From contig JAEOSF010000001.1 of NCBI GenBank assembly GCA_016840515.1, positions 50,447 to 82,446 on the forward strand: DNA of 32,000 nt. The letters are read 5' to 3'. How positions within the stretch are numbered: position 1 is the first letter of the stretch; each line of letters starts with the position of its first letter. This DNA comes from Candidatus Borrarchaeum yapensis. Lineage in GTDB: Archaea; Asgardarchaeota; Sifarchaeia; Borrarchaeales; Borrarchaeaceae. Below are positions 150 through 30,887 of this stretch, one piece after another. Position numbers and translations under genes: made by a program. The notes under the pieces were generated by a model, which was given only the letters and a program-made list of their open reading frames with translations, had not been told where the DNA came from and searched no databases.

Positions 150-596
150 TTGGCGATGTTCTTGCCCCTATTCGAAGAGGTCGTATTAACGAAGAATTTG
201 CACAGGAAAATGCTAGAAGTAGCAAGAAAAAGTTATCCGCTGGAAGGATGCGGAGTTCTATTTGGACATATCGATAATAACAAAGCGATAATTCGGGACG
301 TTATTGAAACCGAAAATAGTGCTGAAAATCCTACTGTGAGATTTTACATCGATCCTGAGTTGTTTTATACCATTCTTATATCTGCCGAAGAGTCAGGACT
401 TGAATTCTTAGGAATCTTTCATTCACATCCAGCACAGCCGAATCCATCACCATGGGATCTTGAATACATGCAGTTACATCAAAATGTGTGGATAATAATT
501 CAATCTCTCAACCGAGAAGAGAAGAAAATGAAAATGAAGGTTTTTCAATGGTATGACGAACAACTTTTTGATGTCAAATTGAAAATAACCTGCTAA
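150..596 (+). CDS. JAMM/MPN+ metalloprotease (Mov34 family)
   Basis: 148 aa. Has 'PLEGCGVLFG' (catalytic Glu region) and 'FHSHPAQPNPSPWD' (a near-canonical HxH...S..D zinc motif with a 6-residue spacer). The start may be TTG at 150 or ATG at 156. Confidence 0.8.
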   Translation: MAMFLPLFEEVVLTKNLHRKMLEVARKSYPLEGCGVLFGHIDNNKAIIRDVIETENSAENPTVRFYIDPELFYTILISAEESGLEFLGIFHSHPAQPNPSPWDLEYMQLHQNVWIIIQSLNREEKKMKMKVFQWYDEQLFDVKLKITC

Positions 597-6088: not shown

Positions 6089-6606
6089 CGTTTTCCCCAA
6101 ATTTTAAATTTTTTATTTTTATTTTAAATTTGTAAAACAATGTGTATATTTTAGGAAATTGGCAAATATCTGATCGTTTCTTATATAAATAGTTAATGGC
6201 AAGCGAGTTTACATAACAAACAAAATGTATAGAATAAACAACCCCTGAGAAGACATATGTCCACTACAGAATGATAAAGAACTTTCATAAATGACAATAA
6301 ATGACAAAAACAAATAACGTCGGTTACACTGTTAAACATAATAAAGTAGAAGAAAATAACCAACAATGTAAATCGTCAAATTCCTAATTAGAATCAAGCA
6401 ATAATGGGGGACTTGAGTTACAAAAAACTCAGGAAGAATGGGAATTCATTAATTTTTGCAGTTTAGCTTGATGTAATAAAGACAAATATCCTCTAAAAAA
6501 GAAATAAGCAAAAGAGTCTGCTTTAACATATTGGTGATATGGTTTTCCACAATAGATAAAAAGAGGCATCACGGTAGATAACACAACTAGCTGAAGGGAT
6601 ATTACT

Positions 6607-7329
6607 ATGAAGATAATAATAACGGGTGCGTTTAGTTCAGGTAAATCGACCCTTGTACAATCACTTGGCAAAGAATCAGCTATTTCGCTAGATAAGTCAG
6701 GAACCACAGTTGCTCTTGACCATGGGACAGTAGACGTTTTAGGCATTCCAGCGTTTCTTTTTGGAACTCCCGGACTCGTCAGGTTCTCAATTCTGCGCCA
6801 AATCTTATCTGAGGGAGCTGACGGCATGATTTTCATGGTAGATTCTGCAAATCCTAATATCGAAAATTTCAATGAGATATGGCAAGAGATGCAAGAGATA
6901 CAGATCGTTGCATCAGTTCCCTGCGTGATAGCAGCTAACAAACAAGATTTACCTGATGCAAAGAGCGTAGAAGAAATAAGAGAGCTTCTAGGACTTAGTG
7001 GATATCCAATCATACCTATTTCAGCTAAGACAGGCAATGGCATGATGAGACCGCTTCTCATACTTTTATTAATTAACATTCTACGTGCAAGTTCGTTACT
7101 GCGTATAATCGATCGTATTGGTAACGAAAACAATGCTTTAGAGCAAATTGCAGACATGATCGAGTTAGGTAGATATAAAACAAAACTTAGATTATACTGG
7201 CTTGAATGGCGCGGCTTAATTGAAGCTGATTGGAATTCCCAGCGATTTAAGGTTGTTCCAGCAGTTAAAAAAGTTTTTGAAATACTTCCTAGACTGATCC
7301 GCTCATATGAAGAGATTATATTAATGTGA
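6607..7329 (+). CDS. small GTPase (COG2229/MglA-like 'GTPGQ-type') fused to a C-terminal winged-helix-like domain
   Basis: G1 'GAFSSGKST', switch-I Thr in 'LDHGT', G3-like 'FGTPGLVRF', G4 'NKQD', G5 'SAK'. The last ~80 aa ('LEQIADMIELGRYKTKLRLYWLEWRGLIEA') look like a wHTH. Confidence 0.8.
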   Translation: MKIIITGAFSSGKSTLVQSLGKESAISLDKSGTTVALDHGTVDVLGIPAFLFGTPGLVRFSILRQILSEGADGMIFMVDSANPNIENFNEIWQEMQEIQIVASVPCVIAANKQDLPDAKSVEEIRELLGLSGYPIIPISAKTGNGMMRPLLILLLINILRASSLLRIIDRIGNENNALEQIADMIELGRYKTKLRLYWLEWRGLIEADWNSQRFKVVPAVKKVFEILPRLIRSYEEIILM

Positions 7330-8264: not shown

Positions 8265-9458
8265 TTATCCGCGGATGCGAACCACCTCAGGGTGCGCCAT
8301 CACCCAGTTATCCCTCTCCACCATGCGTGGACCTGGGAATATCGGATTTGAAAGATTAGCCACTCCATTGACATCAGCATTGAGAACTTTATTAGCTGTT
8401 TTGCATACATATAAACCACGGTGTTTTCGACCATTTCTATGTCTTTTACCGCAAAGACTACAGGTTTGAGAGGTCCAACTTTCGTCTATCGTTTTGACAA
8501 TCATCCCAAAATTCTCGGCTGTTATGTTTAACCGATCGACAATATAGCGAAAACTCCAGAAGTTATGGATCATTGCGTTGGTTTTTTTCCCCTTATCATT
8601 ATCCACTCGGATATGGGTTAAATCACCTACCGATATTTCAGAAACACCCTTCTCATAACAGTCCTTGACGAATCGATAGATCATAGTGTTGATGCCCTGT
8701 CGAAATCTCCGTTTCCTTGTCCGATATAACTTGTTTAGTTTTTTTGTGGGCCTAGGTTTCCCTCCTAATTTCCTTTGATAGTTAGCTATTTGTTTGTTCC
8801 AATACCACCAGTCACTCAACAACGACTTCCCAGAATAGAGTTTCGCACGAGTATCACCTTCAGTATAAGTGGTGAGGACATTGATCACTCCCAGATCGAT
8901 GTACGCCTTCTTGTTTCCTAATGGTTGATGTAGAGGTGTGCACTCTACTGGTTGATAGGCATACCATCCTTTCGAGAGCATATCAAAGTGAATTTCAAGA
9001 CGTCCTTGTTTTCCATGCCAGTTTAAGTTTCCATGGTAGGTAATCGCTAATTTATTGGGCAACAAAAGCCGTCTGGCTTCAAATTTATAACAATCTGTAC
9101 GTATGAGTGACCTTAAAATTCGCTTGCCTGTTTTTCGATCTTTCCAGTAGCCAGGAGGTCTAATGACCTTGATATGAGGAGACAACTTCCCCTGCTTCTT
9201 TTTTCTTAAAAGTGCAAAAAAGGATTTCCAAGCCTCATTATTCTTGCGGATGATCTGTTGCGTTGTTGCAGAACCGATCTGAGGTGAAAAGTCCTGATAT
9301 TCTTCAGTGGTATCCCAGTCTAGAGTTCCATCGAAGAAGGATTGTCGCCGCTTAAAGGTTATTTTATTCCATAAGACAGAAGATAACGTGCATAAGGCAA
9401 ATAGTTTTGCCTCTTGATCCTCATCAGGAACTAATTTAAGGATATTAGTTCTTCTCAA
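8265..9458 (-). CDS. tnpB: TnpB / IS605 OrfB-family RNA-guided endonuclease
   Basis: 397 aa. N-terminal 'ILKLVPDEDQ...', RuvC-I 'AYIDLGVINVLT', C-terminal 'WTSQTCSLCGKR...' Zn-ribbon and RuvC-III 'NADVNGVANL'. The second Cys pair of the ribbon looks degenerate ('YVCKTANK'). Confidence 0.9.
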   Translation of the reverse strand: MRRTNILKLVPDEDQEAKLFALCTLSSVLWNKITFKRRQSFFDGTLDWDTTEEYQDFSPQIGSATTQQIIRKNNEAWKSFFALLRKKKQGKLSPHIKVIRPPGYWKDRKTGKRILRSLIRTDCYKFEARRLLLPNKLAITYHGNLNWHGKQGRLEIHFDMLSKGWYAYQPVECTPLHQPLGNKKAYIDLGVINVLTTYTEGDTRAKLYSGKSLLSDWWYWNKQIANYQRKLGGKPRPTKKLNKLYRTRKRRFRQGINTMIYRFVKDCYEKGVSEISVGDLTHIRVDNDKGKKTNAMIHNFWSFRYIVDRLNITAENFGMIVKTIDESWTSQTCSLCGKRHRNGRKHRGLYVCKTANKVLNADVNGVANLSNPIFPGPRMVERDNWVMAHPEVVRIRG

Positions 9459-12589: not shown

Positions 12590-13477
12590 TTATTCATTTT
12601 TTAAAAGAAATCGAGGGAATTTCATCGCACTCTTAACTCTGTTTTCAAATATGCCAAGTTCTCTGACTCCAAAGCCCATTGAAAGCCCCAAAAGTTGCGG
12701 TAGATGAAGAACGGGGATGTCATAGTCGAGTTCCCAGAGTTCTTTAACCTTGATCTGATTTAAATCGAGGCTAAGAGAGCAGAACGGGCAGATAGTTATG
12801 AGCGCCTTAAGGGCTGCATCATGCGCAGTAGATATTATACGATGTGTCAGACGCCAAGCGACATCTGGGGCATTACTTAAGACGGGGGCTCCACAGCAGG
12901 ATATTTTTCCTTCATAATCTGATGCAATTGCTCCAGTAAGATTAATGATTTCATCCATATGCAGTGGTCGTTCAGGGTCTCCGTGATGTGTAATTTCAGA
13001 GGGGCGAAGCATGTGACAACCATAGTATGCTCCAACCTTAAGTCCGTCTTTAAATGGTATTTTAAGATGTTCCTTTATTCGTGGCAGTCCAACATCCTCA
13101 TAAAGAATTTTGAGAAAATGTTTAACTTCAAGTGTGCCATTATATTCTAGGTCAAAGTCTGATAGAATATTGTTAATATCTTCCCTTGCAGCATTATCTT
13201 TCTTTAAGTATTCATTTGCATGCATGATCGAACCTACGCAGCCGTTACATAAACAGCAAATATCTAAGTCCATTTTTTCAGCTGTAGCTAAAATTCTTGC
13301 CGACAACAATGTCCAATATTGTTCGTCCATTGAACGAACAATGGGTGAACCACAACATCCCGAATTAGGGAGATCAATCAGTTCTACACCTAGTTCCTTT
13401 GCAACTACACGGGAAGAGGCTTCATACCCGTTCATTTTTTCGGGAATAGTACAGCCTAGAAAAAGCGCATACTTCAC
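12590..13477 (-). CDS. hdrB: heterodisulfide reductase subunit B (two CCG domains)
   Basis: 295 aa. 'YALFLGCTIP', 'SGCCG', 'CCLCNGC', 'YYGCH', 'ISCCGAP', 'ICPFC'. The GTG start overlaps the hdrC stop by 1 nt. Confidence 0.9.
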   Translation of the reverse strand: MKYALFLGCTIPEKMNGYEASSRVVAKELGVELIDLPNSGCCGSPIVRSMDEQYWTLLSARILATAEKMDLDICCLCNGCVGSIMHANEYLKKDNAAREDINNILSDFDLEYNGTLEVKHFLKILYEDVGLPRIKEHLKIPFKDGLKVGAYYGCHMLRPSEITHHGDPERPLHMDEIINLTGAIASDYEGKISCCGAPVLSNAPDVAWRLTHRIISTAHDAALKALITICPFCSLSLDLNQIKVKELWELDYDIPVLHLPQLLGLSMGFGVRELGIFENRVKSAMKFPRFLLKNE

Positions 13478-14019
13478 TATTTTTCACCAGTTTCTTCTTC
13501 AGGGGGTTTATAATGGACTAATTTGGTGAATTTAATCTTTTCTGCTAGTTTTCGCATTATATCTGCGTCAGGAGTAGGCAATTCAGGGAGTTTGAAGCGA
13601 GTTTGACGTATTTTATTTTCATATTCACCCACTTCATTCATTAAGCCAAAAGTTAAGATGTTAGCCGCGATATCTGACCATACGCTAGGTATAATGTTTT
13701 CTTTCGCTGCCATGTTTCTAAGGTGAACGAAAATTTCTGGAGGTTTTACATCTTGAGGACAACGCTCCTCACATACATAACAGCCTGTACATAACCAAAT
13801 GAGCGGGTTGTGCAGTACTGCTTCTCTATCACCTAACATGATAAGCCGAATGATATTTCTCGGACTGAATTCTTCGCCACCGAACCGTGCTACAGGACAG
13901 CTACCCGTGCATGTCCCGCACTGGTAACAGGCAAAAAGGTCAAATGAAAGGTCCTCGATAAATTCCTCTGCGAGGCTCAAGTCTAGATCTGAAAGCTTCA
14001 CTACTTTTTCAGTTTCCAA
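13477..14019 (-). CDS. hdrC: heterodisulfide reductase subunit C (2x[4Fe-4S])
   Basis: 180 aa. 'CYQCGTCTGSCP' and 'CTGCYVCEERCP'. Confidence 0.9.
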   Translation of the reverse strand: METEKVVKLSDLDLSLAEEFIEDLSFDLFACYQCGTCTGSCPVARFGGEEFSPRNIIRLIMLGDREAVLHNPLIWLCTGCYVCEERCPQDVKPPEIFVHLRNMAAKENIIPSVWSDIAANILTFGLMNEVGEYENKIRQTRFKLPELPTPDADIMRKLAEKIKFTKLVHYKPPEEETGEK

Positions 14020-14022
14020 GTT

Positions 14023-14472
14023 CTATTCCTTCTTCGCTTCCTCTACTTCTTTCTTTACACGCTCAATTTCGGCCAGTTGCCATTGGACAAATTCGTTGGT
14101 GTCACCTTTCATAAGTTTTGAAAGGTCTGCCTCCAAATTAGATGGGCTAATCTTGACCATCCAACCTTCGCCGTATGGATCAGTATTGACAAGTGAGGCA
14201 TTATCCCACAACCCTTCATTGAATGCAGTAACTTCACCTGCGACTGGGGCATAAATTTTGCCTGTCCACTTGCCGCTTTCTAGTGTTCCAAAAGGTTTCA
14301 TAAACTCTACCGTCTCACCTTCAAAAGGCAATTGCACAGCCTGAATTTTTTCAGCCATGGTTTGCGCAAAATCGGTCACGCCAACCACAACAATATCTCC
14401 TTCTACTCTTGCCCAAGAATGTTCAGTTGTATAATATAATTCATCTGGGAGATCATAATCTTCAATTTTCAT
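14023..14472 (-). CDS. gcvH: glycine-cleavage H-protein-like lipoyl carrier
   Basis: 149 aa. 'YTTEHSWARVEGD...VGVTDFAQ' and 'LESGKWTGKIYAPVAGEV' (the lipoyl-Lys position is conserved). SD 'aaggag' lies upstream. Confidence 0.88.
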   Translation of the reverse strand: MKIEDYDLPDELYYTTEHSWARVEGDIVVVGVTDFAQTMAEKIQAVQLPFEGETVEFMKPFGTLESGKWTGKIYAPVAGEVTAFNEGLWDNASLVNTDPYGEGWMVKISPSNLEADLSKLMKGDTNEFVQWQLAEIERVKKEVEEAKKE

Positions 14473-14532
14473 TTTTACATTCTCCTTTTCAATTTATGAA
14501 ATTGTTTTTTTTCAAAGGTTATATATAAGAAG

Positions 14533-14549
14533 CATCCCTGCGTAGGGAG
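14533..14549 (-). other. second small hairpin in the hdrA-gcvH spacer (minus RNA: CUCCCU-ACGC-AGGGAUG)
   Basis: 5-bp G/C-rich stem (UCCCU/AGGGA) with a 4-nt loop, directly 3' of the SECIS candidate. Function unknown. Confidence 0.3.
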
Positions 14550-14558
14550 CCAGTCCTT

Positions 14559-14587
14559 CTCTCAGTCCCTAAAGGGTTTCCCGAGAG
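14559..14587 (-). promoter_or_regulatory. candidate archaeal-type SECIS element in the hdrA-mvhD 3' region
   Basis: Minus-strand RNA is 5'-CUCUCGG-GAAA-CCC-UUUA-GGG-A-CUGAGAG-3'. It has a 7-bp lower helix, an asymmetric internal loop with GAA(A) on the 5' side and A on the 3' side, three G-C pairs and a 4-nt loop. It starts 4 nt after the final stop of the Sec gene. Confidence 0.7.
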
Positions 14588-14590
14588 AGA

Positions 14591-17500
14591 TCATTCCATT
14601 TCAGTTCGAGATATACGCGACGGATTGGGTCCAAGTTTCGAAATACTTTCGCCAAAGGTTTGCATTGCTTCTCTAAATTTTTCTGCTTCCGCGGATGAAA
14701 GGAAGTACATTACAGTTCTGCCTTCACCAAAACCCATAGTTTCAAGAAGTTTTTCAGCCAACTCAACAGACTTTTCTGCTTGTAAGTTTCCATCAATATA
14801 TGCACAGTCGCCTTTGTGTCATCCGACTACGGCGACACCGTCTGCGCCGAGTGAAAACGCATTAAGCAACCATGGAGTATCAATACGACCTGTACACGGC
14901 ACCCGTATAATTCGAGTTCGATAGTCATATTGAAGTTTTGAAAGCCCAGCTAAGTCTGCAGCACCATACCCACATTTTTCACAAGCAAAAACAAGAAGTA
15001 ATGATTTTTGCTTGCTTTCAGCTAAAAGTGATTCAATTTGTGGATAGAATTGCTCATCTCGCCAGTATCGAAGTTCTCTAGCTCCAGAGGGACATGCTGC
15101 AACGCATGTGCCGCAGCCCTTGCATTCAATTTCATCAGTAACCGAAACAAGTCCTCCTGCTTCAGTTTCTTTCGTAGTTATAGCATCGTATGGACAGGCG
15201 ATTACGCACACCTTACATCCGCTACAAAGATTCTCGTCACATACAGCCTTGATTAGTTCAAGTTGAATCTCTTTTTGTTGTAACAGTACGCCTGCTGCTG
15301 ATGCCGCTGCTTTACCTAGTACTATTGAGTCGCTTATGCTTCGTGGAGAAAGAACAGACCCTGCTACGTAAACGCCATCTTTTCGTGTTTCGACAGGTTT
15401 GAATTTTATGTGGATAGGCTCAAGAAAACCATCAGAAGAGCGAGTAACTCCTGTTATCTTACACAGTTCATCAAAGCCTTCAGGAGGTTCTTGCCCTACC
15501 GCTAGGACTACATAATCTGTGTCTATCTCGAATGTAGTTCGTGAAAGGGTATCGTATACTTGCACCATAGCATTTTCATTGTAGATTGCCGTAACCATCG
15601 GGGGTCTTTCTTCTGTCCATCGCATAAAATTGGAGCGATATTGTTTTCTTGTAGTTAGATAGAACTCTTCCATATACCTTCCGACAGGTCGCAAATCCTC
15701 CTTAAAGAGGACAAAGGTTTGACAGTTCGGAAAGAGTTCTTTCACGGTCTGCGCATTTTTCAGTGAGGCACCGCAACAAACACGAGAGCAGTATTTGTTT
15801 CCATCTTCTTCTCGTGAGCCAACGCACTGAATGAAGACAACACGTTTTGGTTCTTGATCAAAACTGCGCGTTTTAAGCAATTCCTCGAATTCAAGAGAAG
15901 TTACCACTCGTGGAACAGTATTGTAACCGTATTCGCCGTCCTTGGGAGAATATGTATTTGTTCCGACAGCTATAATTATAGCGCCAACGTTAATATCAGT
16001 GTTTTCTCCATTAATTCTCCTAATTTGTGTTGTAAAATCACCGATGTGACCATCAAGGGATTCCAATGAAGACTCAAGGTAAACCGAGATATTGGGAGCA
16101 TTAGATATCTGCGCTGTTAATTCATCCAAAATTTGGCTGGCTTCAGTTTTTTCTGGAAACACTTTGTAGAGAGAATTGAGACGACCACCAAGTTGAGAAT
16201 CTTTTTCCACGAGGTGAACATTGAATCCTTGATTAGATAAATCAAGGGCAGCCGACATTCCAGCAATTCCACCACCAATAATAAGAGCTTCATTGACAAC
16301 TGAAACCGTCCGATATGGCACAATCTCAAGATGTAATGCTCGTGCAATGCCAGCCCTGATCAAGTCCTTTACTTTTTCTGTGGCTTCTTTTTTTGTCTGC
16401 ATATGAACTTGCGCTGCCTGATCTCTTATGTTCACGTATTCAAGATAATACTTACTTACTCCAGCAGACTCTAAAAGAGTCCTAAATGTTTCTTCGTGAA
16501 GTAAAGGTGAACATGCTGCTACTAAAACCCGATTAATATTGAGTTCCTTTATCATCTCGCTGATTTGCTGTTGTCCTGGCTCACTACAGAAGAACTCATT
16601 GTTATCTACATAGATCACGCCAGGTAATGTCTTTGTATATTCCATGACTTCTGGTACGTCAATGTAATTTGCGATATTGCCACCGCAGTGGCATACAAAC
16701 ACGCCAAGTCGAGACTCATCGGTAACTTCTTCCTTTGTTTGAGGCGCATATGATGTTATGTGTGGTGGAGAACCAGATAAAAGGTTCACTGCAGACGATG
16801 CAGCAGCTCTTGCTTGAGTAACCGTATCCACAGCATCTTTTGAGCCTGTTGCCACTCCCGCGATAAAGATTCCATGTCGATTTGTTTCGATTGGATGATA
16901 ACTGTTGGTTTCAAGAGGAAATCCATCACCGCTAATTTTAATGCTTAATTTTTGGCATAGTTCATGTGTCCCTTCAGATGGAACAAATGAACTAGATAAG
17001 ACAACAAGGTCGATATTTTTGACCTGAGAAACTTCTCCAGTATTAGTATCTTCAACCCAGACAATCAAGTCTTTTGTTTCTTCGTTTTCTTGAATTTCCG
17101 CCACTTTACCGCGAATTAAATTAGGATTATAGCTATTCTGTGTGTCCCTGTAGTATTCTTCGTAAAGTTTTCCTGAGGATCTTATATCTATATAGCAAAT
17201 GTCTGCCTGTCCTTTTCCTTTTGATTGCAGTTTATAGGCTCTAGCTTGTTTTAATGCGAACATACAGCAGACTCGGTTACAGAATTTGTTGCCGACTTCC
17301 TTTTCACTTCTAGAGCCCACACATTGGACCCATAATACCCTGCTTGGTTCTTTCCCATCAGAAGGTCTCACTATCTTGCCATTAGTAGGACCTGTGGGAT
17401 GCATCATTCGTTCAAACTGAAGTGATGTAACAACGTTTTCGTAGTATCCATAGCCAAATTGTTTCAATGGTGTTGGGTCGAATTCATCAAAACCCGTGGC

Positions 17501-18076
17501 TACAATTATCGAGCCAACATTGATTTCGATGATCTCTTCGGCATCAACAAAGTTTATTGCTTCCGCAGGACACTCCATCTCACACATTCCACAATCTATG
17601 CACTGCTCCTTATCTAATCTAGGGATCTGGGGGACTGCCTGAGGAAAAGGAAGATAAATTGCTTTTCGTACACCTATACCCATATCGTATTCTGAAGTCA
17701 CTTCAACTGGACATACTTCAAGGCATTTTTGACATCCTGTACATTTGTCTGAATCGACATATCTAGGGCTTTGCTTGAGTTTTACCGTAAAGCTTCCTGA
17801 TTCACCATTTACCTCTAAAACTTCGGTTAGAGTAAACAAGCGAACATTGTCGTTTCTGGCAACGCTTGACATAAGTGGTGTAAGTGGTCAAGCCGAGCAC
17901 TCATCGGTCGGAAAGATTTTGTAAACCTGTGAAAATCGTCCTCCAATTGTTTCTCGTTTCTCTACTAGAAACGCCGTATAGCCTTGATTTGCAATATCTA
18001 GCGAAGCATACATGCCAGCCATTCCGCCGCCAATCACCAAGACACTTTCTGCCGCTTTACTTTCCAATGCATTCAT
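14591..18076 (-). CDS. hdrA: heterodisulfide reductase subunit A (tandem HdrA modules) fused to an MvhD domain. Selenoprotein with two in-frame UGA (Sec) codons at 17888-17890 and 14819-14821
   Basis: Three collinear in-frame pieces: 18076-17891 'VLVIGGGMAGM...FPTDECSA', TGA, 'PLTPL' plus the 1017-aa ORF, TGA, then 75 more codons 'HKGDCAYIDGN...FLSSAEAEKFREAMQTFGESISKLGPNPSRISRTEME' to TGA 14591-14593. Both TGAs replace Cys of conserved motifs (FPTxDCSxC and GCHxGDCxY). AGGAGGT SD precedes ATG 18076. There are several ferredoxin-type CxxCxxCxxxCP motifs and two GxGxxG FAD motifs. Confidence 0.85.
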
Positions 18077-18260
18077 TTAACGAACCTCCTACTTAGTGAA
18101 CACCTCCAAACTACCATAACTTAATGTTCGGTTGCTTTTATTCAATTCTTCTTTGATAATGTCAGCGTAATGCACTTCAAAATTATAAAAAAAGGTGGGG
18201 GCAACTGATGAGCACATATATCCCTATACACTTGTAATACTTGGTTAGATATTTGTCACA

Positions 18261-19448
18261 TTAGCGATAACTGTCAACTACACCTGCTGAATAGGCAACA
18301 AGTCTTGGCAATTCTAAAACGCGAATGCGTTCTCTGTAAGCCCTCATTCCAATTGAATGATGACACGTAGGGCAAGTCGTGAGAATATATTGTACACCTA
18401 ACTTAGCTGCGTCTTTGACAATTTCATCACTTAGATCGTTTCTTAGTTCAGTGTATGGTACACGGATCGGTCCACCGCAACATCTCGCGTCTCCTTTTGT
18501 TTCTGGTAACTCAACGAACTCAATACCTGGAATACTTTCTATGATCTTCCGAGGAGGGTCGTATTTAAGTGCGTATCTCCCGAGATGGCATGGATCCTTG
18601 AAGGTAACCTTTCCCTCAAGGGGTTTCGTCATTTTTATTTTACCATCATCGATTAAACGTTCAAGCACTTCCGAAATATGATATGCTTTTGGAGTATCCG
18701 GAGAGATTGCTTTATACTCCTCATTGAAGACTGAAGCGCACATCGGACATGCTGTGATTATAGTCTCAATCCCTCGCGATTTAAAGAGTTCGATGTTTTT
18801 CTTAGCAGCTTTCTCAAAATATGGTTTGAATCCTAACCAACTAAGAAATCCTCCGCAACAACTCTCTGAATCGAACATCGTAAACTCTTCTCCAGCGGCT
18901 TTCAAGAGTTTAACTCCCGCACGTGAATTATCGGGATAATCAATAGTCCCTACACAACCAGCGTAATAGAGCGTTGAAGATTCCTTTGGTAAGGTTGCTT
19001 TTATTTCGCCAAAAACCTCGTTGAACACGACAGGATAATCCATTCCATGGGTATTTCCTTTCTCAAGAATGCTGTCAGCAATACCCCTATGCTCTGAAAG
19101 CGTATAATTGTTGTCGGCTAGATATTCACGCACGCGATCCATAACGTCTACCACTTTTATTTTTGCTGGACAGTGTTCCTCACACTTTTTGCACAATGTG
19201 CATGTGTAAAGAATTTCCATTGCATAATCATCAACGGGAAATCCTCCTTCAATGAGAGCTCGCTCTAGCATGATCCTTCCTCGACAGTTGTAACTTTCCA
19301 TCTGTGTAGCATCAAAAATCGGACATGCAAACCTACAAAATCCGCATCGTACGCATCTGTATGTTTCTGTTTCAGCATCAGCGTCAATCCTCATTTTCTT
19401 ATGTTTTGGTTTAAGCATTGTACCCGAAACTACATCTTCTTGTGTCAT
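18261..19448 (-). CDS. glcF: GlcF/HdrD-like Fe-S oxidoreductase (2x[4Fe-4S] plus two CCG domains)
   Basis: 395 aa. 'CVRCGFCRFACP', 'CTLCKKCEEHCP', 'YYAGC', 'SCCGG', 'ACPMC', 'DPCH', 'ARCCGG', 'TCPTC'. The start is 2 nt after the upstream gene's stop. Confidence 0.85.
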   Translation of the reverse strand: MTQEDVVSGTMLKPKHKKMRIDADAETETYRCVRCGFCRFACPIFDATQMESYNCRGRIMLERALIEGGFPVDDYAMEILYTCTLCKKCEEHCPAKIKVVDVMDRVREYLADNNYTLSEHRGIADSILEKGNTHGMDYPVVFNEVFGEIKATLPKESSTLYYAGCVGTIDYPDNSRAGVKLLKAAGEEFTMFDSESCCGGFLSWLGFKPYFEKAAKKNIELFKSRGIETIITACPMCASVFNEEYKAISPDTPKAYHISEVLERLIDDGKIKMTKPLEGKVTFKDPCHLGRYALKYDPPRKIIESIPGIEFVELPETKGDARCCGGPIRVPYTELRNDLSDEIVKDAAKLGVQYILTTCPTCHHSIGMRAYRERIRVLELPRLVAYSAGVVDSYR

Positions 19449-19450
19449 CT

Positions 19451-20869
19451 CTAGTCATCCTCCAAGATGTTAATTCTTTGGCCTGGAATTGGTAATACGT
19501 GACCAGGGCAGAAAATATTTTTAGGATCAAATGCATTCTTGATCTTTTTCTTTAATTCTAACACTTTAGGTTGGTGTTCAACGGGCATCATCATAAGTTT
19601 GGAAACACCAATTCCATGTTCCCCAGTGACCGTCCCTTCTAATTCAACTGCTGCATGCCACAAGTCAACTAATGTTTGTAGGGCGCGCCTATGTTCATCA
19701 GGATCTCGTTCATCCCACAAAAGTATAGGATGAAGATTTCCATCTCCTGCGTGACCGAATGTGGCAATTTCGATCCCATTCTTTTCGCTTACTCTATCAA
19801 TCTCTTGGAACATCGTCGGTAGGTTTTTTAGAGGTACTGATACGTCTTCCATTCGTGCAGTTGGCCGTCGAAGTGTTAGTGCTGGAAATGCAGCCTTTCT
19901 AGCTGCCCAGACTTGTGTACATGTTTCCAGATCTCGTGCTGTTTCGGATTTGATTGCTCCCATCTCTTTGAACAAATCTTCCAGTTTATCTAGCCGCATC
20001 TCAACGTCATCTCTATTCCCATCTAATTCCACAAGGACAACAGCTCCGCATTCGGGGAATTTTAAGGTTCCTGAATATTCTTCTACTGCCTTAAGTGTCT
20101 TGTAATCAAGAATTTCTGTTCCTGAGGGGTCAAATCCTCTTTTAATGATTTCTCTGACGCACTTTCCTGCTTCAAAAGCGGAATTGAAATAGCCACTAGC
20201 CACGAGACGGACTGCTGGCAAAGGTTGAATTTTGAGCATTGCCTTGGTAATAATACCCAGAGTCCCTTCTGATCCTACAAAAAGTGAAACAAGATCGTAG
20301 CCACAAACAAATTTAATTGCTTTATTGCCGATATTAACGACACTCCCATCTGATAGGACGATTTCCAAGCCCATAACCCACTCTTCGGTGACTCCATATT
20401 TAAGTGCACGAATTCCGCCGCTATTATTATTTACCATACCGCCAATTGTAGCTGTTTTGTCCGATGCTGGATCCGGCGGAAAGTAAAATCCATAGGGCTC
20501 TAAGTAGGTATTGAGGTCTAGACACACCATACCAGGCTCAACGGTTATTAGAAAGTTCTCAACATCGAGATCTACAACCTTGTTCATCCTTGCGACCACC
20601 AAAATCAAACAATCAGGCTTTGCAGGGATGACACCCCCGCTAACGTTGCTTCCAGCCCCTCTTGGAATAATTGAGAATCCTTCTTCATTAGCTAGCTTCA
20701 CGATATCTGCGACCTCTTCTGTGGTATTAGCAAAGGCCACGGCTGCTGGCATACCTGTATCAATGCTAGCATCGCGTGAGTAAATATACAGATCGATTGC
20801 ATGATTTAAAACATTGTTTTCTCCAACTATTTTTTTCAGGGCGGGAATGATTGTGCCCTGCCAATCCAA
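19451..20869 (-). CDS. glcD: FAD-linked 2-hydroxyacid oxidase/dehydrogenase (GlcD / D-lactate dehydrogenase family)
   Basis: 472 aa. FAD_binding_4-type N-terminal half ('IIPRGAGSNVSGG', 'TVEPGMV...L') and C-terminal 'FGHAGDGNLHP', 'GTVTGEHGIG', 'DPKNIFCPG'. Confidence 0.88.
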   Translation of the reverse strand: MDWQGTIIPALKKIVGENNVLNHAIDLYIYSRDASIDTGMPAAVAFANTTEEVADIVKLANEEGFSIIPRGAGSNVSGGVIPAKPDCLILVVARMNKVVDLDVENFLITVEPGMVCLDLNTYLEPYGFYFPPDPASDKTATIGGMVNNNSGGIRALKYGVTEEWVMGLEIVLSDGSVVNIGNKAIKFVCGYDLVSLFVGSEGTLGIITKAMLKIQPLPAVRLVASGYFNSAFEAGKCVREIIKRGFDPSGTEILDYKTLKAVEEYSGTLKFPECGAVVLVELDGNRDDVEMRLDKLEDLFKEMGAIKSETARDLETCTQVWAARKAAFPALTLRRPTARMEDVSVPLKNLPTMFQEIDRVSEKNGIEIATFGHAGDGNLHPILLWDERDPDEHRRALQTLVDLWHAAVELEGTVTGEHGIGVSKLMMMPVEHQPKVLELKKKIKNAFDPKNIFCPGHVLPIPGQRINILEDD

Positions 20870-28858: not shown

Positions 28859-29443
28859 CTATTTTCCTCTATGTCTGTGGCTTGCCAAACTAGGACGTAT
28901 TTTCTCTGTACCTAGTCCTTTCTTACGTAGACCTCTTGACTTTTTCCCAGCACTTGTTAGTCCTCGTGCAGCTCTACCTTTATGTACTGGATCACAAATC
29001 CAATTTATTCTAGGATCAGACTGAATCACTGGATGGTTTGGATCAACGAGAATTATTTCAAACCACTTGTACATACCATCTGCTTCCACCCAATAACTAT
29101 TAAGCACACGTAAATTGGGAAATCTTCTTTCAGCGTTTTCTTCGGCCATAACCTGTCTAGACTTCCCTAGTGTAATTTTTGTAACACCCATGCGCTTTGA
29201 TCGCCTGCCACGTGTTGGGCGAGGTTTTTGTCGTGACCCACGTCGAACTCGAACTCTAGCTAAAACAAAACCTTGTTTTGCTTTATATCCTAATTTCCTC
29301 GCACGATCAATACGTGTTGGTCGGTCTATGCGAACTGTTGCGGGTTGACGCCTCCATTTTATGCGCCTTTCCCGTGAAAGTCTTTTCATAACTTTCGAGT
29401 CTTTGTCTTTCCACATTTTTTCAACATAAGAATATAAACCCAT
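28859..29443 (-). CDS. rpl15e: 50S ribosomal protein L15e
   Basis: 'MGLYSYVEKMWKDK...RIKWRRQPATVRIDRPTRIDRARKLGYKAKQGFVLARVRVRRG...'. The start was reset to ATG 29441-29443 (GGAGGT 6 nt upstream). The 34-aa extension in the track is hydrophobic junk. Confidence 0.92.
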   Translation of the reverse strand: MGLYSYVEKMWKDKDSKVMKRLSRERRIKWRRQPATVRIDRPTRIDRARKLGYKAKQGFVLARVRVRRGSRQKPRPTRGRRSKRMGVTKITLGKSRQVMAEENAERRFPNLRVLNSYWVEADGMYKWFEIILVDPNHPVIQSDPRINWICDPVHKGRAARGLTSAGKKSRGLRKKGLGTEKIRPSLASHRHRGK

Positions 29444-29578
29444 TAAATTACCTCCCAAATATTTTACGTTCAGCGTATAAAACGCTACATCCAGGGAGAG
29501 AAAACAAATAGTGGAAAAGAAGGATTGGTTTTTAACTTTTTTCATTCTAGAAAATTTAAAGTAAATAGCTTGTCAATC

Positions 29579-30025
29579 CTAGACTTTGTAGAAAGTCCTC
29601 TTTCTGATCCTAGCGACTAGTTCACGCACCATAAGGTGGGCCATAGTACTTATTGCTGTTGATGCCTTATTCCTGTCAATGATAAGAATTGATGTGGGTA
29701 TATTACCGCACTTTTTCTTTATCTCCGTGCGATACCGCACCGCTGCTTCTTTATCTTCTTTAGACTTAGATGCAACGATCAGAACCCCTTTAGCTCCTTG
29801 ATAACTTTTTTGAACTAGTATCTGAAAGGCATTCTTGTGAGGATGCCAATAAGAGATCTTAACAGATTCAGAAGCAACACGTCCAACATGTACGCCTATT
29901 CCATCGACCATAATGTTGTCATAGGATATTAGACGCAAAATTTTGTCGTTTAGGTAATCATCGGGTCCAATAACTGCTATTTTGAAAATAAATCTATAAT
30001 CACGATGCTTTTGTTTCACACTCAA
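29579..30025 (-). CDS. Rab/Ras-like small-GTPase-fold protein lacking P-loop, DxxGQ and NKxD motifs (pseudoGTPase), paralogue 1
   Basis: 148 aa. 'YRFIFKIAVIGPDDYLNDKIL' in place of 'FK..LIGDSGVGKS.LL', 'ISYWHPHKNAF' in place of 'IWDTAGQERF', 'YQGAKGVLIV' in place of 'YRGAHGIIVV', 'ILIIDRNK' in place of 'LVGNKxD'. Confidence 0.7.
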   Translation of the reverse strand: MSVKQKHRDYRFIFKIAVIGPDDYLNDKILRLISYDNIMVDGIGVHVGRVASESVKISYWHPHKNAFQILVQKSYQGAKGVLIVASKSKEDKEAAVRYRTEIKKKCGNIPTSILIIDRNKASTAISTMAHLMVRELVARIRKRTFYKV

Positions 30026-30285
30026 GCTAGTTCGCCATTCTATATCAATAAGAATTGGTCTTACTGAAAGATGATTTGTATACCTATATATTGGTACTTG
30101 TTATTAATAAACATTGTATTAGTAAAAACATCGAGCGGATTTCGAACACATAAAATGTTATTTCTCTGTAACTGATTCAAAATAGAGAAAAGTCAGACCA
30201 TATCCGACATTGAATCAAAAGAAAACCTTACGTCAACTGAAAAACAGTTCAGTTCATTCGGTATAAATTGAAACGCGTGATAGAC

Positions 30286-30729
30286 TCAAACTTCTCTTGG
30301 GATTCTTTCTCTTATTTTAACGGCTAGTTCATTCATTTTAATATCGGCCATCTTATGTATCTCTTCGGGCTTCATACTTTTTCCAATGAGAAGATGTGTG
30401 GTGGGTATTTCACCGCATTTCTTATTCACTTCAGCGCGAAACTGCGGCAAGGTTTCAATATCGTCTTCATCTAAGACAATTAGAGCCCCATGAGCGCCCC
30501 TAAGCGCCAGAGAAACCAATACTTTGTAGGCATCTTGATGCGGCAACCAGTAACTCAGTTTAATTCGGTCTGTGTGATCAGCGTCACCTACATGTATTCG
30601 TAGACCGTCAATTCCTACGTTGCCCCCTGAGACCAAGTGCAGTACTTGATCTTTCAGAAAGTCATTAGGACCCACTACAGAAATCTTAAAAATAAAATCA
30701 TATGCACGTCGTTTACTAATATGGCTCAA
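30286..30729 (-). CDS. Rab/Ras-like small-GTPase-fold protein lacking nucleotide-binding motifs (pseudoGTPase), paralogue 2
   Basis: 147 aa. 'YDFIFKISVVGPNDFLKDQVL', 'LSYWLPHQDAY', 'LRGAHGALIVLD', 'LLIGKSMK'. It is collinear with paralogue 1 over the full length. Confidence 0.7.
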   Translation of the reverse strand: MSHISKRRAYDFIFKISVVGPNDFLKDQVLHLVSGGNVGIDGLRIHVGDADHTDRIKLSYWLPHQDAYKVLVSLALRGAHGALIVLDEDDIETLPQFRAEVNKKCGEIPTTHLLIGKSMKPEEIHKMADIKMNELAVKIRERIPREV

Positions 30730-30887
30730 AATGACTCCTCAGCGGTCTAAATCATCTTTGTCATATCGCATTAAAAGAAGTTTAAAACACACTTCTTATG
30801 ACGATCACCTTACTACGAAAAACCCGCTATCAATCTATTAAATTTTTTCTAGTGAACTCCTCCGCAGATTAAATGCGATCGCACCGA

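Follow-up and report, generated by a model that had tools for sequence, protein, structure and literature searches.

What becomes of a Rab-type protein once the residues that bind nucleotide are gone: does its gene decay, or can it persist as a scaffold? This question is raised by two adjacent genes, here termed A and B, of the Asgard archaeon Candidatus Borrarchaeum yapensis. Both lie within a stretch of 32,000 nucleotides that was analyzed as a whole (contig JAEOSF010000001.1, positions 50,447 to 82,446, forward strand) and is referred to below as the window. Much work on how the eukaryotic Ras superfamily and membrane trafficking arose centers on Asgard archaea, and an original prediction, made from the letters of the window, held that A and B are Rab-derived proteins that have lost every nucleotide-binding motif. 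The two open reading frames (ORFs) are present as described, on the same strand and separated by a gap of 260 bp:

30286..30729, minus strand: gene B, a 147-amino-acid P-loop-less Rab-like protein with a TTG start, near-neutral to mildly basic
29579..30025, minus strand: gene A, a 148-amino-acid paralogue of B, strongly basic

All of the quoted strings were recovered from the translations, namely, YDFIFKISVVG, IKLSYW, LRGAHGALIVLD, GPNDFLKD, LPHQD, and GKSM in B and GPDDYLND, HPHKN, and DRNK in A. Judged by sequence comparison and a predicted structure, A and B are probably class-i pseudoGTPases, that is, nucleotide-free scaffolds derived from Rabs.

Relationship of A and B to Rab GTPases

The two proteins are 42% identical across their entire length (BLASTP E value, 6e-43). 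In a single-sequence phmmer search of the sequences in the PDB, the best match of B was Rab35 (E = 7e-6), followed by Rab1, Ypt1, and Rab11, and A, likewise used as a single sequence, matched Rab35 (E = 7e-4). A profile built from 33 orthologues reached an E value of 6e-8, and a profile of the wider family of 57 members described below reached 3.4e-12, with Ypt1, Rab35, and Rab1 as its matches; among the matches listed (60 per profile search), all are Rabs. When the 57 members were scanned against Pfam, the only recurrent families were Roc (25 members) and Ras (24 members), with a best E value of 1e-8. The same database says little about the single sequences: B scored 11.6 bits against Ras (PF00071), below the gathering cutoff of 21.6, and gave only subthreshold matches to Roc and Ras, A did not match Ras and gave only a spurious RdRP match, and NCBIfam yielded no match to A or B.

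The Rab-like residues that persist are the YDFxFK N terminus, K-L-x-x-W of RabF2, and Y-x-G-A of RabF4. In alignments with Rabs, RabF2 reads KLSYW in B and KISYW in A, and RabF4 reads SYxGA or ALRGA, so that both are largely retained, whereas RabF1 (DGLRI or DGIGV), RabF3 (AYKVLV), and RabF5 (IVLDED) are mostly lost. Despite this partial retention, Rabs are the best-scoring family throughout.

The structure of B was modeled with AlphaFold2 on the 57-sequence alignment (predicted local distance difference test [pLDDT] score, 78.5; predicted template modeling [pTM] score, 0.76). The elements of the model are beta1 (residues 12 to 19), alpha1 (23 to 33), a beta2/beta3 hairpin (36 to 63), alpha2 (69 to 76), beta4 (81 to 87), alpha3 (88 to 105), beta5 (110 to 115), and a terminal helix of 22 residues (121 to 142). 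In a Foldseek comparison with the PDB, Ypt32-GDP, Sec4, and Rab1b lead (E = 3.8e-8 to 1.7e-7; query-normalized template modeling [TM] score, 0.68 to 0.72; probability, 1.00), and the best 50 matches are all Rabs (E = ~4e-8 to 4e-6; query-normalized TM score mostly 0.55 to 0.72). The predicted structure thus retains the Rab core beta1-alpha1-beta2-beta3-alpha2-beta4-alpha3-beta5 plus a terminal helix. Strand beta6 is absent from the model, in which beta5 is followed by a single long helix. Many of the Foldseek alignments cover the entire 170-residue Rab chain (171 to 177 columns), an extent that would be explained if the terminal helix stood in for alpha5 and alpha4-beta6 were the part deleted. 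Helix alpha1 of the model begins at residue 23, within the former P-loop, and the motif GP[ND]D[FY]L[KN]D is predicted to form the capped start of a lengthened alpha1. The claim that the proteins are collinear over their full length therefore holds for A with B but not for either with Rabs, relative to which the C-terminal third is reduced and ~5 residues behind alpha1 are missing.

Could the likeness to Rabs be convergent or superficial, with A and B adopting another alpha/beta fold, for example, a flavodoxin-like or CheY-like one? Such a reading would fit the subthreshold Ras and Roc matches of the single sequences and the size of the proteins, which are ~25 residues shorter than a G domain. 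It is nevertheless very improbable, given that only Rabs are among the listed matches of profiles that descend to an E value of 3e-12, that Ras and Roc, matched by 24 to 25 family members, are the only recurrent Pfam families, that Rabs account for all of the best 50 structural matches, and that the N terminus, RabF2, and RabF4 are retained. The proposed Rab derivation is upheld, as sequence profiles and the predicted fold place A and B with Rab GTPases alone, and neither the AlphaFold model nor the Foldseek search supports a non-GTPase fold. On these sequence and model comparisons, A and B descend from a Rab-type small GTPase.

The closest known proteins by both sequence and fold are thus eukaryotic Rabs (Rab35, Rab1/Ypt1, Rab11/Ypt31/32, and Sec4), with which A and B have in common the YDxxFK N terminus and beta1, the interswitch hairpin with the Trp of KLxxW, the YxGAxG motif, and an IVxD-type beta4. 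Unlike eukaryotic Rabs, they lack G1 to G5, beta6, the hypervariable tail, and the prenylated Cys, are shorter behind alpha1, and have degenerate RabF1, RabF3, and RabF5. The proteins end in ...RIPREV and ...TFYKV, the sole Cys lies in the alpha3-beta5 loop, and no C-terminal Cys prenylation motif is present in A or B.

Nucleotide-binding motifs and selection

The replaced motifs were located by alignment to Rab35 and by translation:

30649..30672, minus strand: G1 of B (GDSGVGKS replaced by GPNDFLKD)
30532..30546, minus strand: G3 of B (DTAGQ replaced by LPHQD), right behind the invariant Tyr60-Trp61
30373..30384, minus strand: G4 of B (NKxD replaced by GKSM)
29945..29968, minus strand: G1 of A (GDSGVGKS replaced by GPDDYLND)
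29831..29845, minus strand: G3 of A (DTAGQ replaced by HPHKN)
29666..29677, minus strand: G4 of A (NKxD replaced by DRNK)

The loss reaches further than these three motifs. The Thr of G2 is replaced by Ile in B and by Val in A, and the G5 (SAK) segment is absent from both proteins together with strand beta6. Within G1, the Gly before the P-loop lysine has become a near-invariant Leu, and the Mg-binding Ser/Thr after the lysine has become Asp; the lysine itself is kept only in B-type proteins (Lys26), with Asn at this position in the A type. Neither GxxxxGK[ST] nor [NT]KxD was found in any member of the wider family (0/57), so the loss claimed for the pair is confirmed in 57 of 57 proteins. We infer from these replacements that A and B cannot bind or hydrolyze GTP canonically, in which case they would act as constitutive, switch-less protein-binding modules. 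As they do not pass as functional small GTPases and keep the RabF motifs only in part, they are filed here as Rab-derived pseudoGTPases rather than as Rabs.

A and B might still bind a nucleotide or another phosphorylated ligand noncanonically, as atypical switches or sensors resembling class-ii or class-iii pseudoGTPases. The Lys26 of B-type proteins and the conserved His46, His64, and Asp41 near the former switch regions would fit this reading, and eukaryotic pseudoGTPases that bind GTP without hydrolyzing it are a precedent (PMC10211241). Against this stand the Asn of the A type, the Leu that has replaced the Gly making room for the beta-phosphate, the Asp in place of the Mg-binding Ser/Thr, the Ile or Val in place of the G2 Thr, and the loss of both the guanine-specificity Asp of G4 and the entire G5 loop; furthermore, the His residues are not conserved across the wider family. 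Ligand binding of this kind is accordingly quite unlikely, and a nucleotide-free scaffold remains the preferred reading.

Are the two genes, then, functionless remnants of decaying Rab-like GTPase genes? All catalytic motifs are lost, small-GTPase paralogues are very numerous in Asgard archaea, and pseudogenes may exist among the unclassified ones (bioRxiv 10.1101/2024.02.28.582541). Yet word-indexed searches of metagenomes and metagenome-assembled genomes recovered 31 orthologues, 18 of the B type (72 to 96% identity) and 13 of the A type (68 to 99% identity), and the reading frames are intact at every locus. The closest named genome is that of Candidatus Borrarchaeum weybense (92% protein identity for both genes); the other orthologues carry the labels Promethearchaeota or Sifarchaeia and are all named "hypothetical protein," and a genome scan with narrow peptide patterns added just two loci. 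Ratios of nonsynonymous to synonymous substitution rates (dN/dS), computed pairwise by the Nei-Gojobori method against three orthologous loci, are 0.07 to 0.17 for B, the synonymous rate (dS) of which is saturated in the most distant pair, and 0.26 to 0.37 for A; five flanking genes, among them those for 2-hydroxyacid dehydrogenase, L15e, the PF01877 protein, and Rpp30, gave 0.07 to 0.30 for the same genome pairs. A and B are under purifying selection, comparable to that on their neighbors. The argument that selection rather than decay shaped the pair, together with the expectation of orthologues in intact frames, is thus sustained, and with the replacement motifs, start codons, and ribosome-binding sites conserved as well, decay is extremely improbable.

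The resemblance of the replacements between the paralogues, which had been noted at the outset, extends to their conservation within and between both groups. Overall, the two paralogue groups have 39 conserved positions in common and differ by fixed residues at 14. Invariant or nearly invariant are G20-P21, D41-G42, H46, Y60-W61, P63, H64, G78-A79, G81, L83-I84-V85, C105-G106, and P109. The most conserved surface is formed by the interswitch (the beta2-beta3 hairpin) and the start of switch II, with the VDG turn, His46, Tyr60-Trp61-x-Pro63, and YxGAxG; the invariant Trp61 is the counterpart of the RabF2 Trp. RabF motifs mediate the binding of Rab regulators and effectors (PMC4915359). Because this region contacts effectors and regulators in Rabs, the old interswitch/switch-II face is taken as the putative binding surface of A and B.

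A wider family of P-loop-less proteins in Asgard archaea

A and B represent a single, lineage-specific branch within a larger Asgard family, which lay beyond the view of the original prediction. An exhaustive profile search of 1.84 billion representatives gave 62 matches. Beyond A and B, these include ten proteins with E values of 1e-22 to 1e-12 and others scoring lower, all P-loop-less relatives of 145 to 373 amino acids; a profile search that gave source names places the relatives in Thorarchaeota, Helarchaeota, Lokiarchaeia, Jordarchaeia, and Freyarchaeia. The next-ranked matches are canonical GTPases, most of which end in CC or CxC and are therefore read as eukaryotic Rabs. Two long, high-scoring matches (P0046 and P0048) were rejected as spurious, being repetitive and surface-protein-like. 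A rough neighbor-joining tree, which carries no support values, groups the P-loop-less proteins into one clade separate from canonical GTPases, with the 315-amino-acid forms branching first. A and B are sister groups in this tree, which indicates a duplication within the Borrarchaeum/Sifarchaeia lineage. One relative of 373 amino acids (P0068) keeps TIGVDF...KFQIWNPSNQ...YRG and has GNADQIRE in place of the P-loop; by its sequence, it looks like an intermediate. P0049 and P0068, which belong to the more Rab-like forms of 315 to 373 amino acids, are both candidates for this role.

How does this family relate to known systems? Asgard Rab-like GTPases, presumably close to A and B in sequence and fold as eukaryotic Rabs are, are probably the ancestral stock of A and B, which are like them in combining a Rab-like sequence with the lack of prenylation sites and in having the same phylum-level hosts. 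Described archaeal Rab-like GTPases keep all nucleotide-binding residues (Surkont and Pereira-Leal 2016, PMC4915359), and Thor-Rab was crystallized with GDP (PMC10933270). In contrast, A and B keep no nucleotide-binding residues, a distinction drawn from the published descriptions of these GTPases.

Among eukaryotic proteins, the nearest analogues are class-i pseudoGTPases such as CENP-M and the pG1 and pG2 domains of p190RhoGAP, which are nucleotide-free G-domain scaffolds (PMC10211241). A and B resemble them in their predicted G-domain fold with degenerate G motifs and, by analogy, would share the nucleotide-free state; they differ in their Rab-like ancestry, archaeal host, and smaller, C-terminally reduced domain. 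The likeness to CENP-M that had been proposed stands as an analogy only. A sequence relationship to these class-i proteins was not detected: no Pfam model apart from Ras and Roc recurred, and the CENP-M profile did not match A or B at E values of 10 or less and does not appear among the 25 families that head the list for the 57 members. To our knowledge, the kinetochore partners of CENP-M (CENP-H, CENP-I, and CENP-K) do not exist in archaea.

The remark that no described P-loop-less Rab-like family was known from Asgard archaea agrees with the literature searched (8 million full texts). No paper in it joins pseudoGTPases or inactivated GTPases with Asgard archaea, the combination of pseudoGTPase with archaea leads only to general reviews without an archaeal example, and the Asgard GTPase surveys and structure papers among these texts do not mention such a family. 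Within the searched literature, the P-loop-less Rab-like family is undescribed. Small GTPases have expanded so greatly in these archaea that a dead derivative among them is no great surprise; what is new is a conserved, C-terminally reduced family spread over multiple classes. A survey based on GTPase profiles or G motifs would probably overlook it; A and B score below Pfam thresholds, and those members that have a name are called "hypothetical protein." The family is also a cautionary class for counts of Asgard "GTPases." More generally, loss of the switch with retention of the scaffold, a route so far known from eukaryotic pseudoGTPases, would occur in archaea too, and with ~146 amino acids, A and B are small targets with which to explore the binding partners of Rab-like surfaces in an organism that has no endomembranes.

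The relatives outside the Borrarchaeum lineage have features of their own. Three Thorarchaeota-type relatives (P0033, P0034, and P0035) lie in a rearranged yet conserved gene cluster (L010:1-6917, L012:4437-10079, and L014:1-6376). Common to all three loci are a protein of ~1,300 amino acids with a TrmB-like N terminus and apolipoprotein-like helical repeats and a GNAT acetyltransferase; a small Zn-ribbon protein is encoded in L010 and L012, an FeS_assembly_P-like protein is encoded in L010 and L014, and an additional neighbor has a common block of ~62 amino acids. A gene for ThiF (E1-like) lies two genes from the family member in L012. No homologues of the neighbors of these relatives were found in the window, and as a clue to what the family does, the Thorarchaeota-type cluster is more promising than the context of A and B in the window. 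The forms of ~315 amino acids from Lokiarchaeia, Jordarchaeia, and Freyarchaeia possess a Cys-rich C-terminal domain along with a polybasic tail (L004:4780-5957, L007:4752-5948, and L006:4671-5948). A small ORF ends ~20 nucleotides upstream of each of them, and the one in L004 matches the ubiquitin-like proteins ThiS/SAMP2 (E = 2e-5). Relatives of ~200 amino acids (P0032, P0038, P0041, and P0096) have a C-terminal extension in which the conserved block AG.P.[FY].VD..G[IF][IV]... is followed by [IV]PL[FY] and which in P0032, P0038, and P0096 ends in a lysine-rich tail; these tails are reminiscent of the polybasic stretches that anchor some eukaryotic small GTPases to membranes.

The gene pair in its locus

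The regions that flank A and B, with the gene that follows, are as follows:

30730..30887, minus strand: region upstream of B, with a conserved TTTAAA block and a GAGGAG ribosome-binding site
30026..30285, minus strand: B-A intergenic region, with a T-run behind a short inverted repeat, 3' of B
28859..29545, minus strand: ribosomal protein L15e ORF as called, the N terminus of which is 34 codons too long

The TTG start of B is preceded, at a distance of 6 nucleotides, by the GAGGAG site, and both codon and site are kept in four genomes. The true start of A is probably the GTG at 30019, which gives a protein of 146 amino acids, because several orthologues begin there. Similarly, the real rpl15e probably spans 28859..29443, because the Pfam match begins at residue 36 of the ORF as called and GGGAGGT precedes the ATG at 29443. 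Upstream of each of the three genes (B, A, and rpl15e) lie a separate, conserved AT-rich block and a ribosome-binding site. In front of A, at 30026..30110 (minus strand), the conserved noncoding blocks are GCTCGAT, TTTATTAAT, AATATATAGGTA, and GGCGAACTA, the last just before the start; they persist even in comparison with locus L001, at which the proteins are ~75 to 76% identical. These AT-rich, promoter-like blocks with the leader GGCGAACTA are probably a promoter plus leader, as read from their sequence and position, and the T-run 3' of B is a putative terminator within the same intergenic region. Scans for Rfam families and tRNAs gave no match in the entire window, including the blocks upstream of A.

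In the comparison with L001, for the same genome pair, the dS of A (~0.6) is about one-third that of B (~1.9 to 2.1), and that of neighboring genes is 0.7 to 1.7. Possible reasons for the low value are codon bias, noise from saturation in short genes, and constraint on the mRNA of A. An overlapping element as its cause was considered and dropped, because the dS of A lies within or near the range of the neighboring genes.

In both the window and L001, the gene order is 2-hydroxyacid dehydrogenase > B > A > rpl15e > PF01877 RNA-binding protein > RNase P Rpp30 > Pop5. Its segment B > A > rpl15e recurs in L008, L009, L015, L016, and L017 and is thus present at all six related loci that were read, with PF01877, Rpp30, and Pop5 coming next wherever the contig extends far enough; three further contigs apparently carry both A- and B-type genes. 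The block from rpl15e to Pop5 is one that we take to be the start of the archaeal "exosome superoperon" of Koonin and colleagues (2001). Does this setting mean that the pair was recruited to translation or RNA processing, as small basic factors associated with RNA or ribosomes? The constant order at 6/6 loci would fit, as would the net charge of A, which is +11 to +16 across orthologues (isoelectric point, ~10) compared with -1 to +6 for B, and the polybasic C-terminal tails of distant relatives. However, the six loci all belong to one lineage (73 to 92% protein identity), so the synteny with rpl15e may be due to nothing more than common descent; relatives in Thorarchaeota, Helarchaeota, Lokiarchaeia, and Freyarchaeia have unrelated neighborhoods; and Pfam scans of A, B, and the 57 members found no RNA-binding domain. 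Since the upstream elements are separate, with promoter-like and Shine-Dalgarno elements belonging to rpl15e itself, a functional link to translation or RNase P is possible but weak, and recruitment to these processes is unlikely. Under the pseudoGTPase reading, the charge of A suggests an acidic protein partner, RNA, or an anionic membrane or lipid.

A and B may work together, most simply as a heterodimer. This idea is tentative, with the chances somewhat against it, and is drawn from the constant adjacency of the genes, the asymmetry of charge, and the clustering of fixed differences, 5/14 of which (residues 31, 35, 39, 43, and 44) sit in the alpha1/switch-I/beta2 stretch. Paralogous G-domain proteins that work as fixed pairs are known in RagA/B-RagC/D and in the alpha and beta subunits of the SRP receptor, all of which bind nucleotide. 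Rag GTPases dimerize via C-terminal roadblock domains; unlike them, A and B have no such domain, and their dimer is purely hypothetical.

Several observations weigh against a functional scaffold pair of this kind. The dN/dS of A is rather high, B keeps the P-loop lysine, and some proteins with degenerate motifs nonetheless bind nucleotides. The first AlphaFold2 model of B, based on a shallow alignment of orthologues only, was poor (pLDDT, 52.8), and confidence in the final model is moderate at beta2/beta3 (pLDDT, 67 to 68). The separate promoter-like regions of A and B do not support coregulation, and the possible inheritance of the rpl15e synteny within one lineage removes some of its weight. 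Finally, the association with neighboring canonical GTPase or Roadblock genes that had been envisaged did not materialize: no Roadblock, longin, DENN, or GTPase gene adjoins the pair at the locus, and the only canonical small GTPase gene in the window lies 23 kb away.

A broader reading, which we regard as doubtful, would make the family the first recognized prokaryotic pseudoGTPase family, Asgard-wide, in which switching was given up either prior to eukaryogenesis or independently of it; after duplication in the Borrarchaeum lineage, A and B would form an obligate heterodimer that serves as a permanent, on-like adaptor via the Rab effector face. Its partners would be Rab-regulator-type proteins (Roadblock, longin, or DENN), RNA, or a membrane. 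If this reading were true, dead-GTPase scaffolding, thought to be a eukaryotic elaboration, would already be present in the archaeal relatives of eukaryotes.

Other features of the window are as follows:

6607..7329, plus strand: canonical small GTPase of 240 amino acids (Pfam Arf, E = 5e-12; also MMR_HSR1, SRPRB, and Ras)
8265..9458, minus strand: TnpB-like protein with OrfB_IS605 and a Cas12f1-like TNB domain, which marks an IS200/IS605-type mobile element
150..596, plus strand: Prok-JAB/MPN-type deubiquitinase-like protein (E = 3e-18)
12590..20869, minus strand: redox gene cluster

The gene for the canonical GTPase is overlapped by an antisense ORF (6429..7157) without a family match. The deubiquitinase-like protein is possibly part of an Asgard ubiquitin-like system. 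The redox cluster encodes an FAD-linked oxidase, a CCG/Fer4 protein, a glycine-cleavage H protein, a Fer4 protein, a second CCG protein, and an HdrA-like protein of 1,017 amino acids with a C-terminal FlpD/MvhD domain, and it resembles a heterodisulfide-reductase-like electron-bifurcating module.

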